Below are positions 10,415 to 38,326 of a DNA stretch of 64,000 bases, one piece after another; position 1 is the first letter of the stretch, and each line of letters opens with the position of its first letter. The stretch comes from Candidatus Culexmicrobium cathedralense (lineage in GTDB: Archaea; Thermoproteota; Methanomethylicia; Culexarchaeales; Culexmicrobiaceae), in assembly GCA_025061115.1 (NCBI GenBank), contig JANZKC010000002.1:224001-288000 (forward strand). Reading direction: 5' to 3'. Under the pieces are notes generated by a model that made no database searches, was not told where the DNA came from, and saw only the letters and a list, made by a program, of their open reading frames with translations. Both the position numbers and the translations under genes were made by a program.

Positions 10415-10524
10415 GCCGGGGTAGCCTAGTGGTAAGGCGCAGGCCTCGAGATCATACTGTCAGGGGCTGGAAAGCCTGTGCCCGCGATGCGGGCACGTGG
10501 GTTCAAATCCCACCCCCGGCGCCA
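10415..10524 (+). tRNA. tRNA-Ser(CGA) with 22-nt intron at 37/38 (10451-10472)
   Basis: Acceptor GCCGGGG/CCCCGGC + G-CCA, anticodon stem CAGGC/GCCTG, loop CT-CGA-G|A, long variable arm, T-loop TTCAAAT. Confidence 0.85.
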
Positions 10525-31361: not shown

Positions 31362-31465
31362 GCCGGGGTAGCCTAGCCAGGATCAAGGCGCAGGCCTGGA
31401 GAAAGACTCCCGTAAGCCTGTGCCCCACACGGGGCTCGCGGGTTCAAATCCCGCCCCCGGCGCCA
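31362..31465 (+). tRNA. tRNA-Ser(GGA) with 13-nt intron at 37/38 (31402-31414)
   Basis: Acceptor GCCGGGG/CCCCGGC + G-CCA, CAGGC-CT-GGA-G|A-GCCTG, long variable arm, TTCAAAT. Confidence 0.9.
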
Positions 31466-33362: not shown

Positions 33363-34574
33363 TTAGTTTGGGCCTTGATCACTAAAACATATTGCTGTGA
33401 TCTCTTTTAAGCTCTCAATGCTCTTTTCAAGCAGCCCATCAATATCCAATTTAGACTCTATCTCTAATACATCTTCAAGCTCAGCTCTTGTTACTGGTTT
33501 AGAAGGTCTAGCCCAGCAACCCTTAATTGGCGTGCAGCCAGAAGTAACTCTCATGCATGAAGCTTCGTAAGTTCCAATCCTTTTAGCTAGAGCTATGCTC
33601 TCATCCTTATCGAAACCTATTAGAGGCCTTAAAACAGGTAGCTCCGAAGCTTGATCTATAACTCTCAAGTTATCCAGAGTTTGAGAAGCCACTTGAGCTA
33701 AATTCTCACCAGTAACAATAGCTTTAGCACCAACTCTCTTAGCTAGCTCATTAGCAACTCTATACATCATCCTTCTACACAATACGCAAGTGTGCTTCAA
33801 AGCCGCTTTTCTAAAGGCAATTAAGTTATGCTCATGCCTGAAAACATAAACTGGCATTTCCTCTCCAACATGCCACTTCCTAAGTATTCTAACCACTTTA
33901 ATGAAGCGCCTCAAATCCGACTCATCACCTCCACGTGGAAAGTAAGCGAATAGAGGAATAACGCTGCATCCCCTCTTCATCATAAGCCATGAAGCAACTG
34001 GAGAATCTATGCCGCCAGAAATTAGGCATACAACCTTCCCCGCAGTTCCAAGAGGCAGTCCTCCTGGGCAAGGAACCCTCACATTATAAATATAGCACTC
34101 TTCATCTCTAACTTCAACATAAATTACCCTCTCAGGATTGTCCAAGCACACTTTAACTTTCGTTTCCTCCTTAACTATAGCTCCCAAGCGATTTTCCAAG
34201 TCTTTACTAGTAAATGAATGCGAGCCGGTCCTCCTAACCCTCACCGAAAATGATTTTGCATCTCCAATCAGCAAATGCGAAGCATCCCTAATGAACGCGC
34301 TTAAATCACTTAATTTAACAAACTTAAATGGCGCAGCAAAAACTAAGCCAAAAACTCGCTTGAGCAAATCTAGAGCCCCATTAACATCTTCAACTTCTAT
34401 GAGCAATCTAGACCACTTATGACGAACTCTACCTCTCAAGCCGATCTCCTTAAGCCCATCAATGATATTTTGAGCTAACTTCCTAACAAATCGCCTTCTC
34501 ACACTATTGGATTTTATAGCTATTTCACCATATGCAGCTAAAATTCCATCCCACTCAATGCTTGTTGACTGCAT
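33363..34574 (-). CDS. thiI: tRNA 4-thiouridine synthase ThiI
   Basis: YGEIAIKS, THUMP domain, GGLPLG, SGGIDSPVA, CVLCRR, GENLAQVASQT, RPLIGFDK. Confidence 0.93.
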   Translation of the reverse strand: MQSTSIEWDGILAAYGEIAIKSNSVRRRFVRKLAQNIIDGLKEIGLRGRVRHKWSRLLIEVEDVNGALDLLKRVFGLVFAAPFKFVKLSDLSAFIRDASHLLIGDAKSFSVRVRRTGSHSFTSKDLENRLGAIVKEETKVKVCLDNPERVIYVEVRDEECYIYNVRVPCPGGLPLGTAGKVVCLISGGIDSPVASWLMMKRGCSVIPLFAYFPRGGDESDLRRFIKVVRILRKWHVGEEMPVYVFRHEHNLIAFRKAALKHTCVLCRRMMYRVANELAKRVGAKAIVTGENLAQVASQTLDNLRVIDQASELPVLRPLIGFDKDESIALAKRIGTYEASCMRVTSGCTPIKGCWARPSKPVTRAELEDVLEIESKLDIDGLLEKSIESLKEITAICFSDQGPN

Positions 34575-34748
34575 TTCAATAAAGTTCAGAAAAACATGCT
34601 GATAAATCTCTCTATCTACAGCCTAAATTGCCGAAATCTCATAAATAAATCCAAATTGCAGCTGAAAGTTGAAGGGAATGATCCTACATGATCTTGAGCA
34701 GAATTTAAATGCAAGTAATTTAAGTTCGAGCATTAATATTGAATTAAT

Positions 34749-34811
34749 GGGCGATGATGCATCTTTAGCGGTTGCTGCCAATTGATGGCAGAACCCGGCA
34801 AGGCTGAGCCC
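34749..34811 (+). ncRNA. Box C/D sRNA candidate
   Basis: Terminal stem GGGC/GCCC, C-like GCGATGA, C'-like TTGATGG, D box CTGA at 34804-34807; intergenic. Confidence 0.6.
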
Positions 34812-34890
34812 AAACCCCCGAAGCAAATAAATACCACACAAGCAAAAATACTAATGAAAGCCGGGGTAGCTCAGCCTGGGAGAGCGTCCG

Positions 34891-35527
34891 TGAAAACCCG
34901 TGCTAGGAGCCTTACCGCTCTCCACAATTTTTTATTAACTCAACAGTTTATGGAATTCTATGGTATAATGGTAGGTGATGGAACGCTCTACCATAAGCAT
35001 AATTGCAAATATTTTTTTCACAATATCCGAAGGATACAAAGATTATGCACAACATATTGCAGGGCTAGTGTATCTACTTATAGGCAGGTATCCACGGATC
35101 AAATATAGATCAAAGGCTTTTCAGAATAGAGTTTAAGTCAAAAAGACTCTTCAACGCATTCATAAATTTAGGCTTTCCTTTAGGCAAGAAAAGTTCCAAC
35201 ATTTCCATTCCCACAATAATTTTATCACATGATAATGTTAATTGGCTAATACGTGGAATATTTGATACTGACGGATCTATTTTCTTTAGTAAAAAGCCTG
35301 GCATAGTAAACTACCCTACCGTTGAAATTACTAGTAAAAGCTTTACCTTACTTAAACAGATCAAGAACGCTTTACGAGAAAAGTATGGCATTTTAGCGCA
35401 TATACGCAGATCCAAAGGTGTACATGAATTGGCAGTATATGGTTCGAAAGAAATAAGTAAGTGGGTAAAGTTTATAGGGAGCAGCCATAAAATTAAATCT
35501 CGGCTCCTAGCACGGGTTTTCGGCGAA
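34891..35527 (+). mobile_element. BHB tRNA intron encoding a two-motif LAGLIDADG homing endonuclease (two +1 frameshifts as assembled)
   Basis: Motif 1 EFYGIMVGDG (~34953-34982), motif 2 WLIRGIFDTDGS (35243-35278), linker LGFPLGKKS..ISIP. Strict BHB and a 20-bp terminal stem. Confidence 0.88.
34892..35521. repeat. Perfect 20-bp inverted repeat closing the tRNA intron
   Basis: GAAAACCCGTGCTAGGAGCC (34892-34911) is the exact reverse complement of GGCTCCTAGCACGGGTTTTC (35502-35521). Confidence 0.97.
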
Positions 35528-35551
35528 GCTGAAGACCGGATTGTCGAGGGT

Positions 35552-36637
35552 TCAAGTCCCTCCCCCGGCACTAAAATTATTAAGTAATTCCTTTACGAAC
35601 GAACCGAATTCCGTAACATCATATTCCCAATTTTTCAGCATGCTGGGATCCCATACTGGATGAAAAACCCAAGCAGTCCAACCAGCAACCCTATCCTCCA
35701 TGTAGGAGATTAAGGGCTCCCCAAAACAGCTTCTACTCCCCTTTAAAAACTCATAATCCACCTCTTCCTCATAACCCCACTCAGTTACAAAGACGGGATA
35801 ATGCTCAGCGACCCGCCCCCAATAATAATCCCATTCCTTCATAGGCCTACCAGGATAAACATGAACTGCATAAGCTATGTTTTCACCTGAAATGGGATCA
35901 CTTAAAACTCCTCTTAAATCGTAAGCCCAATCTACACCTCCGACAATTATTATAACATCCGCATCCTTACCCCTAATTAAACGGATAATCTCCTCGGCCA
36001 AAGGCTTCCAATCTTCCCACTCAATCCATGCTGGCTCATTAAAAATTTCATAAAGAACATTGCTCCTACCCCTAAATCGCTCTGCAACTCTACTCCAGAA
36101 ATTTACAGCTAAAGTGAAGTTTGGATCATAAATATTCTCCCCATTCCAAGGTTCCTCATACATCCAACTAAAGTTTTCAGGCGTTTCAGTCTCACCCGTA
36201 ATGGGATTTCCAATCGCATGCCAATCAATTATTACATAAATACCTCTCTCCTCACACCATTCAACCACCCTATCAAGGTACCTCTCAAGGTAATCGAAAT
36301 ACCTCTTCCAAAACACTGGGTGAACTGGCACTCTAACGACATTTACATTCCACATCTTAATCACATCGAAAAGCTCCTCACCAAACTTCCCCTCCCAATC
36401 TAGATAAGCTGGATCTGCTATCCCCACACCCCTCAAAATCACCTCCTTTCCACTAGCAAGAAGCTCATTTCCAACAATCTCCAATTTAGGCAAACCTTCA
36501 CGTTTAAACCTGAAAATGCAAAGCTGATTGAGAAAACAAATGCACAAGCCCATAATCAAGCAAGCAACAATGAAAACCCCAAATCTCGACGGCCAACCTC
36601 TAAAAGCCAGCGTTTTGACCATAACACCTCCACCCAA
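35552..36637 (-). CDS. Glycoside hydrolase family 5 (cellulase-like), N-terminally anchored/secreted
   Basis: LRGV, NVVRVP, YVIIDWH, acid/base IFNEP, AVHVYP, nucleophile VTEWG, GWTAW; hydrophobic N-terminus. Confidence 0.9.
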   Translation of the reverse strand: MGGGVMVKTLAFRGWPSRFGVFIVACLIMGLCICFLNQLCIFRFKREGLPKLEIVGNELLASGKEVILRGVGIADPAYLDWEGKFGEELFDVIKMWNVNVVRVPVHPVFWKRYFDYLERYLDRVVEWCEERGIYVIIDWHAIGNPITGETETPENFSWMYEEPWNGENIYDPNFTLAVNFWSRVAERFRGRSNVLYEIFNEPAWIEWEDWKPLAEEIIRLIRGKDADVIIIVGGVDWAYDLRGVLSDPISGENIAYAVHVYPGRPMKEWDYYWGRVAEHYPVFVTEWGYEEEVDYEFLKGSRSCFGEPLISYMEDRVAGWTAWVFHPVWDPSMLKNWEYDVTEFGSFVKELLNNFSAGGGT

Positions 36638-36857
36638 CCCATACGAAAATTCACTAGTTAAATGTACTCCAGCATAATGCTAAATCAATAAACCCCAATC
36701 ACCTTCATTAAATTTAGCCGAAACTAACTTGCAGCCAACAGCCTTCACATAACTTCGCGATGCTCTGGTAACTGTTTCAATTTGAAGGCAAGTTAAATAC
36801 TCAAAACAAACTAAGTTGAAAAGCGCAAAATTTTATCCAGCCCACGCGAAATAGAGT

Positions 36858-36920
36858 TAGGGCGATGACTGATCAGAGTTAAGTTGACCTGATGATAGAA
36901 AGGCATTAGGAGGAGCCCTA
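36858..36920 (+). ncRNA. K-turn / box C/D-like sRNA candidate
   Basis: Terminal stem TAGGGC/GCCCTA, C-like GCGATGA, TTGA + CTGATGA internal D'/C', atypical D box AGGA; lies just upstream of tRNA-Gly. Confidence 0.45.
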
Positions 36921-36963
36921 TAATCACAAACAATTAAAAGCTGCACTCACATATCAACTGTAG

Positions 36964-37041
36964 GCGGCGGTCGTCTAGCCAGGACTAGGACACGGGCCTC
37001 CCGAGCCCGTTACCCGGGTTCAAATCCCGGCCGCCGCACCA
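36964..37041 (+). tRNA. tRNA-Gly(CCC), intronless
   Basis: GCGGCGG/CCGCCGC-A-CCA, CGGGC-CT-CCC-GA-GCCCG, CCGGG-TTCAAAT-CCCGG. Confidence 0.95.
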
Positions 37042-37144
37042 AACTCAAATTCAATTTAAGATTCATTGCACTTGAAATGCAAAGTCAAATTATCCATAAA
37101 TTAAGTCACGTAAAAAATTGAGAGTTAAGGGGAATATACGTAAT

Positions 37145-38326
37145 TTAATAGCTGTTCTTGACGAGCACTTCTTGGGCTGCTCGAACACCGCTTCCCAACT
37201 CTATTTCAAAGCCGAGGTCGTACAATGTTCTTTCGATAGCTGCTATAATTGCAATTACATCATTAGCATTTACAGGACCCATATGACCCACTCTGAAATA
37301 CCTATCCCTTATTTCTGGATAAAGTCCACCTGCAACCACAACTTTTCTCTCCAGCATTCCCTTAAGAAAGCTGCTTAATTGAACCTTTTCCGGCAGGTAT
37401 ACTGCAGTTACAGTTGAAGCAGCAATATCCTCCTTTTTAGCCATAACTTTTAAGCCAATTTCAGCCATTGCTTCCCTAAATGACTTTGCAAGAATTTTAT
37501 GTCGCTTAAATCTATTCTCCAAACCCTCCTTAAATATTAGCTCTAAGCTCTCATGAAGCCCAACTATCAAGTTAACTGCTGGAGTCGCGAAGTATTTTGG
37601 CTTCAAATTCTCATAGGAGCCCATTATGTCAAGCCACTTGCATAAGTTCATGTAATAAGGAGCATAACTCCCCTTAGTTTTATCAAGTTTTTTAATCGCC
37701 TTAGGAGATAGCCAAAGAATAGCTAAGCCTGGAGGGACTCCAATAGCCTTCTGACTTCCAGTTAACACCACATCTACACCCCAATCCTTCATTCTTATTT
37801 CCTCACCCGCAACGCTGCAAACTCCATCAACCACCAGAAGTGTTTCCTTATCCTTAAGGAAAGCTCCAAGCTCCTCAACTGGATGTCTAACGCCAGTACT
37901 CGTATCCACATGAGTTACCGTCACTAAATCATAATCCACTTCACTTACCTTGTTCAATATCTTCTCGCTCGAAACAACCTCTCCAGGCTCACCAGCCTTT
38001 AAGACATCAACTTCAACTGGATATCGATATAAAAGCTCCGCGAATCTATCCCCAAAAACTCCATTGGAAACTACAAGCACTCTATCCCCCTTCTCAATGA
38101 AATTCGAAACGCTTGCCTCCATAGCTAAAGTTCCTGAGCCGGCAAGCACCGCTACCTTATAGTCATTATCAACAAAAAGCAATTTCCTAAGGTCCTCCAG
38201 CGCTTCAGCGAATAGCCGAACGAACTCGCTGGACATGTGGCTTAAATGACCTATACTCAGGCTCCTAAGCACGTGAGGCTCAAAAGTAATTGGTCCAGGT
38301 ATAGCTAGAATCCTTCTCTCACTCAC
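37145..38326 (-). CDS. Class V aminotransferase (serine-pyruvate / alanine-glyoxylate type)
   Basis: IPGP, GSGTLAME, NGVFG.R, HVDTSTG, VDGVCS, GSQKA (PLP Lys), FRVGHMG. GTG 38326 follows a GGTGG SD. Confidence 0.9.
   Translation of the reverse strand: MSERRILAIPGPITFEPHVLRSLSIGHLSHMSSEFVRLFAEALEDLRKLLFVDNDYKVAVLAGSGTLAMEASVSNFIEKGDRVLVVSNGVFGDRFAELLYRYPVEVDVLKAGEPGEVVSSEKILNKVSEVDYDLVTVTHVDTSTGVRHPVEELGAFLKDKETLLVVDGVCSVAGEEIRMKDWGVDVVLTGSQKAIGVPPGLAILWLSPKAIKKLDKTKGSYAPYYMNLCKWLDIMGSYENLKPKYFATPAVNLIVGLHESLELIFKEGLENRFKRHKILAKSFREAMAEIGLKVMAKKEDIAASTVTAVYLPEKVQLSSFLKGMLERKVVVAGGLYPEIRDRYFRVGHMGPVNANDVIAIIAAIERTLYDLGFEIELGSGVRAAQEVLVKNSY

Follow-up and report, generated by a model that had tools for sequence, protein, structure and literature searches.

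The intron in the 23S rRNA gene of Desulfurococcus mobilis encodes I-DmoI. In Thermoproteales, bulge-helix-bulge (BHB) introns of 16S rRNA encode LAGLIDADG homing endonucleases (PMC4496867), and a table in PMC8598171 lumps rRNA and tRNA BHB introns together with the remark that "many contain" such open reading frames (ORFs), citing a 16S rRNA study. PMC2738675 gives a size range of 11-175 nucleotides (nt) for archaeal tRNA introns, and the route by which tRNA introns arrived in Asgard archaea remains open according to a preprint (bioRxiv 10.64898/2026.10.13.758758). Each element is known by itself: the BHB intron, the LAGLIDADG homing gene within an archaeal rRNA intron, and the short tRNA intron at a non-canonical site. 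This study examined a 64,000-nt stretch of DNA from Candidatus Culexmicrobium cathedralense (contig JANZKC010000002.1, positions 224,001 to 288,000), hereafter the window, and the tRNA-Phe(GAA) gene that it contains. Judged by its sequence and its relatives, this single, essential gene is very probably split at tRNA position 30/31 by an archaeal BHB intron of a mobile family, and the intron carries the gene of a two-motif LAGLIDADG homing endonuclease. What appears to be new is their combination, in which a BHB intron of a tRNA gene houses a homing-endonuclease gene and belongs to a putative decay series that ends in a short form; no account of it was found in print. Among the full texts searched, a set that subscription papers and supplementary tables lay beyond, none reported an archaeal tRNA BHB intron with a homing-endonuclease gene, and the word "homing" has no occurrence in two reviews of tRNA introns (PMC4090602 and PMC4033280), the tRNAscan-SE 2.0 paper (PMC8450103), the split-tRNA paper (PMC3218864), or the preprint cited above.

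The 5' exon of the tRNA-Phe gene (34860..34890, plus strand) comprises the 5' strand of the acceptor stem, the D arm, and nucleotides 1-4 of the anticodon stem, corresponding to tRNA positions 1-30. The 3' exon (35528..35570, plus strand) comprises G31, the anticodon loop, and the remainder of the molecule to A73; CCA is not encoded. An intron of 637 nt (34891..35527, plus strand) separates the two. In-silico removal of this intron restored what reads as a functional RNA: the joined exons formed a regular tRNA-Phe(GAA) cloverleaf in ARAGORN and were 100% identical to the uninterrupted tRNA-Phe gene of a genome of the same class (G032; locus L002). Because the joined exons equal L002 base for base, the intron position 30/31 is unambiguous. 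An earlier note on this DNA, made from the letters alone, had placed the exons and the intron at exactly these coordinates, and its assignment of the non-canonical position 30/31 is borne out by the intron-less L002.

When introns were allowed, ARAGORN recovered the gene with its 637-nt intron and found no further tRNA-Phe among the 46 tRNAs of the genome (G000; 1.98 Mb in 25 contigs, 99.99% complete, 7.65% contamination); a BLAST search with the gene likewise revealed no second copy, so that the other tRNA-Phe whose existence the earlier note had considered was not encountered. Default ARAGORN missed the gene, and the Rfam tRNA model missed it both in the region at E <= 1 and across the whole genome (44 hits), as the earlier note had forecast for standard tRNA finders. 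Because the default finders miss the gene, such genomes may be scored as being without an essential tRNA.

By definition, a BHB has a 4-base-pair (bp) helix between two bulges of 3 nt each, within which the splice sites lie (PMC4090602). The junction in the window has this geometry. The 5' half (34883..34891, plus strand) consists of AG in the outer helix (34883-84), CGUC in the central helix (34885-88), and the bulge CGU (34889-91), and the 3' half (35522..35530, plus strand) consists of GGCG in the central helix (35522-25), the bulge AAG (35526-28), and CU in the outer helix (35529-30). The splice sites lie after 34890 (between the G and U of the first bulge) and after 35527 (between the second A and the G of the second bulge), and the central helix CGUC/GGCG includes one U-G pair. 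The adjoining inner stem is a perfect 20-bp duplex. Its 5' arm (34892..34911, plus strand) is non-coding, whereas its 3' arm (35502..35521, plus strand) also codes for C-terminal residues of the endonuclease and lacks 1 nt relative to the nine other long introns described below.

Comparison with related genes revealed that this structure is conserved. In an alignment of ten distinct long pre-tRNAs, 97.6% of the cells pair; sliding the partners lowers this to 34-44%. Both members have changed in eight pairs, four of which belong to the 20-bp stem, a level that 0 of 500 shuffles reached. The central helix is paired at four of four positions in all 25 pre-tRNAs compared (10 long and 15 short), and in five of them an exon G26-to-A change is matched by an intron C-to-U change, converting CGCC/GGCG into CACC/GGUG. 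The RNA elements needed for splicing remain intact in the window. The splicing endonuclease and the ligase are encoded in the host genome by two EndA-family genes (PF01974; 110.7 and 81.6 bits) and one RtcB gene (PF01139; 601 bits), and a two-subunit EndA is expected to handle non-canonical sites according to PMC4090602. The two EndA-family genes are located at C1:462959-463216 and C2:433801-434061 of G000. A group I or group II ribozyme intron was ruled out. A cmscan search of 34500-37300 at E <= 1 returned only a tRNA-Gly (36964-37038) and, overlying that tRNA, a mascRNA match below the threshold.

The coding sequence inside the intron lies in three frames because two T runs each contain a 1-nt insertion. 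The first piece (34950..35018, plus strand) starts with ATG, carries the first motif (EFYGIMVGDG), and ends in the T7 run at 35012-35018, the site of the first +1 frameshift. The second piece (35014..35121, plus strand), in the second frame, ends in the T4 run at 35118-35121, the site of the second. The third piece (35117..35587, plus strand), in the third frame, carries the second motif (LIRGIFDTDGS) and the Pfam domain LAGLIDADG_3 and runs through exon 2 to a TAA at 35585-35587. Both T runs are one T longer than in relatives. A third difference from the nine relatives is a base missing from the 3' stem arm; its absence renders the stem perfect and puts the usual stop codon out of frame. In those nine other long introns, the ORF ends in ...RRS-stop, the last Ser codon straddles the splice site, and the last ~10 codons coincide with the 3' stem arm. 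In nine of the ten long introns, exon 2 supplies the stop, a TGA that corresponds to U33-G34-A35 in the anticodon loop. The endonuclease gene in the window, which contains no intact ORF, is a pseudogene.

The family to which this gene belongs can nevertheless be recognized. Both LAGLIDADG motifs are present with their acidic residues (GIMVGDG and GIFDTDG), and the C-terminal piece matches LAGLIDADG_3 (PF14528) with an E value of 5.9e-10 and 39.7 bits against a cut-off of 22.5. The three pieces tile the close homologues end to end; these homologues are 193-230 amino acids (aa) long and 61-68% identical over the C-terminal piece. Four intact homologues were scanned. LAGLIDADG_2 (PF03161) and LAGLIDADG_3 both scored above the cut-off in P0002, P0004, and P0006, and in P0005 LAGLIDADG_2 remained below it (21.9 bits against 25). 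Profile A3, built from the close family only, matched no PDB chain at E <= 0.01. The same profile with one distant member added (A2) weakly matched an intein endonuclease domain (1e-7) and the PDB chain 2dch_X, a "putative homing endonuclease" (9.7e-6). The two-domain LAGLIDADG protein of the earlier note is accordingly upheld in both of its motifs and in the Pfam match, which a profile search of the kind it had proposed delivered, and not in the single open frame that it had implied.

The state of the frame differs among samples. Removal of both extra Ts opens a frame of 211 aa from the ATG at 34950 to the TAA at 35585-35587, compared with 61 aa when one T is removed and 52 aa in the window form. 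Four DNA runs were compared, and three haplotypes of one near-identical intron were observed. In X1, a Logan contig of 5604 nt at depth 76 covers the split gene in full with 0 differences from the window; X1 may be the source sample and hence not independent. In X2, which belongs to another study, a 3318-nt contig at depth 80.7 extends over 34700-35395; it differs by one substitution and by exactly two omissions of 1 nt each, at 35012 and 35118. A 1615-nt contig spans 35427-35750 without a gap. Between them, the X2 contigs cross both the 5' junction (record 9) and the 3' one (record 14). The X3 contig is without the T at 35012 only. Given the T-run differences among samples, the decay is recent and still polymorphic. 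Pure assembly error is an unlikely explanation of the frameshifts because X1 agrees with the window at depth 76, X3 carries one of them, and X2 carries neither. Misassembly of the junctions, which the earlier note had named as a result that would count against it, was ruled out by the contigs of X1 and X2 that bridge both. Direct joints of 34890 to 35528 and short inserts were also encountered in X1, X3, and X5; these belong to the tRNA-Phe genes of other organisms (3-6 differences per ~43 nt) and do not represent an intron-less allele.

The same vent and sediment communities (X1, X2, X3, and X5) hold tRNA-Phe genes of other organisms with short 30/31 introns running from TGGAA... to ...GATCCGGCGAA, and these ends resemble those of the long introns. 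One such community tRNA-Phe has the central helix CGUC/GACG, with a U-A pair in place of the U-G pair of the window. As a separate observation, if the intron were circularised, the third frame of the window would stop at the TGA of intron bases 1-3 (34891-34893, then joined to 35522-35527), directly after ...LLARVFGE; this stop could be a matter of chance.

The distribution of the intron was examined with its 3' junction motif (18 nt, <= 1 mismatch), a search that would miss more diverged 3' junctions. The motif was present in 0 of the 61 other genomes of the class, which represent nine families, leaving G000 as the only bearer among 62. The tRNA-Phe gene itself was read in 11 loci out of 40 BLAST relatives: eight are uninterrupted, two contain 11-nt introns beside the anticodon, and one contains two other introns. 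In G004 (same family) and G008 (same order), ThiI lies directly upstream of an uninterrupted tRNA-Phe gene, as it does upstream of the split gene in the window, and this conserved arrangement indicates an empty orthologous site. At the level of the phylum, 18 of 401 sampled genomes matched the motif. Fifteen of these carry short 30/31 introns (15-43 nt) in tRNA-Phe, one is G000, and two are chance hits outside tRNA genes. The motif was also found in 25 of 61 relatives of G041, a metagenome-assembled genome (MAG) labelled "Desulfurococcales"; five contain complete long introns, 17 contain short introns (21-84 nt), and three are cut by contig ends, two of them showing long-type coding sequence. 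Because three of these relatives of G041 share their contig coordinates with genomes assigned to the window's phylum, the hosts of the long introns share its phylum and not its class. Introns at 30/31 of tRNA-Phe are common in the phylum in their short form, and the site itself is not unusual. With empty sites in near relatives and the same element in distant hosts, the distribution is patchy, and we infer that the intron was gained horizontally in the window's own lineage.

Two other tRNA-Phe genes appear heavily interrupted. L095 (G298) shows apparent insertions in the D loop and the T arm in addition to a 15-nt 30/31 intron, and L007 (G022) shows apparent introns in the D loop and the anticodon loop.

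The closest relatives of the window's intron occupy the same site. In a scan of one genome per species, the protein was found at 63-65% identity in four MAGs labelled "Desulfurococcales archaeon", in each case inside tRNA-Phe(GAA), and the introns of these MAGs measure 633-666 nt and interrupt the gene at the identical position. G408 also carries a long 30/31 intron, and a metagenome scan yielded seven loci, all in tRNA-Phe at 30/31. After near-duplicates were merged (L114 with L015, L115 with L016), ten distinct long introns remained, including that of the window; the nine others all derive from "Desulfurococcales archaeon" MAGs or from metagenomes. The ORF is intact in four (L014, L017, L112, and L113) and is broken by a frameshift or a stop in five (the window, L015, L016, L116, and L117). 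The tenth, L118, is 377 nt long and has an internal deletion of ~290 nt that keeps both ends of the ORF. Motif 1 reads GGE instead of GDG in the intact L113, and the remaining intact ORFs keep both acidic motif residues. The intron of the window is 64-67% identical to each of the other long introns, which are 66-96% identical among themselves.

Short introns with the same BHB were then compared with the long form. Among the 28 distinct short introns at 30/31 (15-84 nt), five (L111, L120, L121, L132, and L125) exhibit long-type arms beyond the bases fixed by the BHB, and 0 of 200 shuffles were as high for each. The 43-nt intron of L111 is essentially the stem of a long intron closed by a six-base loop, and L111, L120, and L121 keep 12-16 nt of long-type arm per side. 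Together with L118, these five long-armed introns constitute a graded series from an intact mobile intron to a relic. Across the phylum, the family thus seems to range from intact through frameshifted and internally deleted forms to relics of about 40 nt. The four intact, five broken, and one deleted ORFs and the five long-armed short introns are consistent with a cycle of invasion, decay, and loss.

These findings bear on two further proposals of the earlier note. The view of a mobile intron that invaded a tRNA gene and relies on host splicing gains support from the empty sites, the absence from 61 class genomes, the homologous long introns in another class of the phylum, the ORF decay, and the presence of EndA and RtcB. 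The alleles at 30/31 whose survey it had suggested were found in intron-less, short, and long forms, and the decay series and the long-armed short introns favor the link that it had drawn between selfish introns and small non-canonical tRNA introns.

More distant homologues (30-37% identity; L018-L093) are free-standing genes, mostly of DPANN archaea. In 55 of these 76 loci, the open frame ends inside a complete tRNA gene or <= 60 nt from one. The partners are tRNA-Thr(GGT) in 21, tRNA-Arg(CCT) in 13, tRNA-Phe in seven, tRNA-Thr(TGT) in five, and others in nine, as counted with ARAGORN with introns to 1500 nt allowed; some odd anticodons among the calls are probably mis-parsed intron-bearing tRNAs. 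The clades of the protein tree follow the tRNA partner, and the endonucleases encoded in tRNA-Phe introns group together in a single clade (support of 100 in the Shimodaira-Hasegawa-like approximate likelihood ratio test). This tree came from a quick search, and the sister of the tRNA-Phe-intron clade is drawn open (support 88). Because of the midpoint root and the open sister position, the tree gives no direction of evolution. It represents the window by the unaltered C-terminal piece only and omits two of the 76 distant loci (open frame <150 aa from the match start), the decayed intron ORFs L015, L016, and L116-L118, and those profile matches of the phylum sample that have open frames >1000 aa (intein-like) or were not fetched. 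In that sample, the close-family profile matched 29 of 401 genomes, many of the matches being intein-like open frames >1000 aa, and the intron type was present only in G000.

In a 2.9-Mb genome of the same phylum, locus L149 (G338:C9) contains an intact LAGLIDADG_3-like ORF of 222 aa (1453-2121) in which motif 1 is GNG and not GDG. The ORF ends 31 nt upstream of a tRNA-Phe gene (2153-2256) that carries a 30-nt intron at 30/31, and its sister gene (L148; G308:C7) lies 77 nt upstream of a tRNA-Val gene. Lying at the presumed cut site, this short intron might shield the tRNA-Phe gene of G338. A more distant homologue of the same phylum (L155) is located within 23S rRNA. The free-standing relatives may be homing nucleases. 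No upstream partial tRNA copy was found in three loci examined. In L042, a second copy of the first ~15 nt of the tRNA is located about 800 nt upstream. The tRNA-Gly with an 831-nt "intron" that ARAGORN called at L042 looks false because its D stem is poor and a complete tRNA start follows right after the ORF.

The following mechanism is proposed as the most likely for the element. The gene would be transcribed as a precursor of ~711 nt, in which the ends of the intron would pair into the 20-bp stem and the GGCG close to the intron's 3' end would pair with four nucleotides of the exon. Two 3-nt bulges 4 bp apart would thereby be presented, the two-subunit EndA of the host would cut in both, and RtcB would join the exons into a normal tRNA-Phe and probably circularise the intron. 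Translation would proceed from the precursor where the stop codon lies in exon 2. Where a lineage has kept the ORF intact, its product would cut an intron-less tRNA-Phe gene around the 30/31 junction, and repair from an intron-bearing copy would then spread the intron by homing.

The locus and its relatives suggest one way in which archaeal tRNA genes may acquire odd introns. A broader proposal is that homing by an intron-borne LAGLIDADG protein is an overlooked route to non-canonical tRNA BHB introns, that the widespread short 30/31 introns of tRNA-Phe are its relics, and that the element belongs to a tRNA-targeting LAGLIDADG lineage whose members are either free-standing (at tRNA-Thr, -Arg, and -Phe, in DPANN and some Sulfolobales-like archaea) or intron-borne (in tRNA-Phe). 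We advance this proposal only tentatively, as a possibility that falls somewhat short of an even chance. If it is true, a short intron at the cut site would also shield the tRNA gene from such nucleases. How archaeal tRNA genes gain introns at "seemingly random" positions is still an unsettled matter, and the locus would offer a concrete and testable route.

Several results weigh against the homing interpretation or its details. No recent donor was found among the sampled long introns, all of which are only 64-67% identical to that of the window. The endonuclease is broken here, and even a form like that of X2 would stop 17 nt past the 3' end of the tRNA, unlike the nine relatives. The contigs demonstrate the presence of variants and not their absence or frequency. 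Similarity to the long arms is missing in 23 of the 28 short introns, so descent from the long form is unsupported for most of them. Splicing of a 637-nt intron in vivo is presumed from the junction. An unconstrained fold at 37 C gave the 20-bp stem a probability of about 1.0 and the 4-bp central helix a probability of about 0, and thermodynamic support for the latter was therefore not obtained. Because both pairs of the outer helix, as well as the first pair of the central one, draw on nucleotides of the 3' strand of the D stem, and the central and outer helices thus compete with that stem, a fold specific to the pre-tRNA must be assumed. The same unconstrained fold also misses the D stem and is hence a poor judge of tRNA structure; the support for the central helix is covariation, not energy. 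The earlier note had described a strict BHB; the geometry stands, and the word "strict" is to be qualified, given the use of D-stem nucleotides and the absence of the central helix from the unconstrained fold.

The order of events may also have been the reverse, with short ORF-less 30/31 introns being old and vertically inherited, a tRNA-associated LAGLIDADG gene entering the loop later, and the short introns not being relics. The short form is certainly the commoner one (15 against 1 in the 401-genome phylum sample, and 17 against 5-7 among the 61 relatives of G041), and the 23 short introns that do not resemble the long arms conform to such an order, as do the free-standing homologues beside tRNA genes, of which the intact one of G338 lies 31 nt upstream of a short-intron tRNA-Phe. 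However, the absence of the junction from all 61 class genomes means that intron and ORF must have come together in the window's lineage, L118 derives directly from a long intron by an internal deletion that spares both ORF ends, and L111, L120, and L121 retain long-type arms on both sides. The coincidence of the last ~10 codons with the stem arm and the stop in the anticodon loop point, moreover, to long co-evolution of the ORF and the intron. We consider the reverse order unlikely on balance. It is improbable that the intron is instead ancient in the window's lineage and descended vertically, with many losses in relatives and no horizontal gain. The window copy is the most divergent of the long introns, which fits a long separation, and precise intron loss is plausible for tRNA genes; yet the 61 genomes without the junction span nine families and include four of the same family (the same-genus G001 is 57% complete and shows no tRNA-Phe), many independent precise losses would be required, and long residence without homing is difficult to square with the open ORF that one sampled population still has.

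LAGLIDADG proteins double as maturases in organelles. The protein could by analogy not be, or never have been, a homing nuclease and could serve another role, such as that of a maturase-like RNA chaperone or a tRNA-gene-binding factor. GGE in L113 and GNG in the G338 homologue in place of GDG, and the regular siting of relatives against tRNA genes, are compatible with this role. We nevertheless regard it as improbable too: six of the ten long introns have a broken or deleted ORF, and a useful function would not decay repeatedly; protein-dependent BHB splicing requires no maturase; and both acidic motif residues are retained in the other intact ORFs. The chance that the locus is an artefact or a dead gene, that is, a chimeric assembly or a never-spliced tRNA pseudogene, is negligible. 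The assembly is MAG-like (25 contigs, 7.65% contamination) and the Rfam tRNA model is blind to the gene, but contigs of another study bridge both junctions, the gene is the sole tRNA-Phe of a 99.99%-complete genome, and all 25 related genes compared conserve the BHB and the stem, with changes that compensate each other.

The neighborhood of the split gene comprises a ThiI gene upstream (33363-34574, minus strand) and a gene of the GH5 cellulase family (35552-36637, minus strand; PF00150, E 1.2e-38), the last codons of which share 19 nt with the end of the 3' exon. The neighborhood, with ThiI beside tRNA-Phe, is conserved in G004 and G008. Elsewhere in the window, ARAGORN called a tRNA-Ser(CGA) with a 22-nt intron (10415-10521) and a tRNA-Thr(GGT) with a 13-nt intron (31362-31462); both were seen by the Rfam model and by ARAGORN with introns allowed and were missed by default ARAGORN, whose sole report for the window was tRNA-Gly(CCC) at 36964-37041. 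Among the 46 tRNAs of the genome found with introns allowed, there was no tRNA-Trp, and odd anticodons (agg, agc, and acg) were called. Further heavily interrupted tRNA genes may remain unrecognised in this genome.

The family would bridge the gap between rRNA introns that code for proteins and the tiny introns of tRNA genes, and its intact members are candidate thermostable meganucleases with a defined, predicted target of ~20-30 bp in a conserved tRNA gene. Like the BHB introns of archaeal rRNA, the intron of the window has a BHB of the type cut by the tRNA splicing endonuclease, an internal LAGLIDADG ORF, a patchy distribution, and ORF decay, and the distant homologue L155 of its protein resides in 23S rRNA. 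It differs from them in that the host gene is a tRNA gene interrupted at 30/31, that the C-terminus of the ORF lies in a stem arm with the stop provided by U33-G34-A35 in nine of ten cases, and that the proteins constitute a clade of their own, which solved archaeal intron endonucleases match weakly (2dch_X, 9.7e-6). With the short non-canonical tRNA introns of crenarchaea, as presented in the accessible parts of PMC4090602 and PMC4033280, it shares a non-canonical site, a BHB formed by exon-intron pairing, and a host with two-subunit EndA, and 28 distinct short introns occupy its very site with the same junction. In contrast to these short introns, it is protein-coding and, at 637 nt, several times longer than the maximum quoted in PMC2738675, and its family would offer a mechanism of gain at the DNA level, namely homing. 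The group I introns of bacterial and plastid tRNA genes (PMC3984707), some of which have homing-endonuclease genes, likewise include mobile, endonuclease-bearing introns in the anticodon arm; these are self-splicing ribozymes, whereas the intron of the window is a protein-cut BHB intron in which no Rfam ribozyme was detected at E <= 1. Its nearest non-intron relatives, 55 of 76 of which end within 60 nt of a tRNA gene or inside one, resemble free-standing homing genes beside their targets, whereas the gene of the window lies inside the tRNA gene itself, in a spliceable intron.

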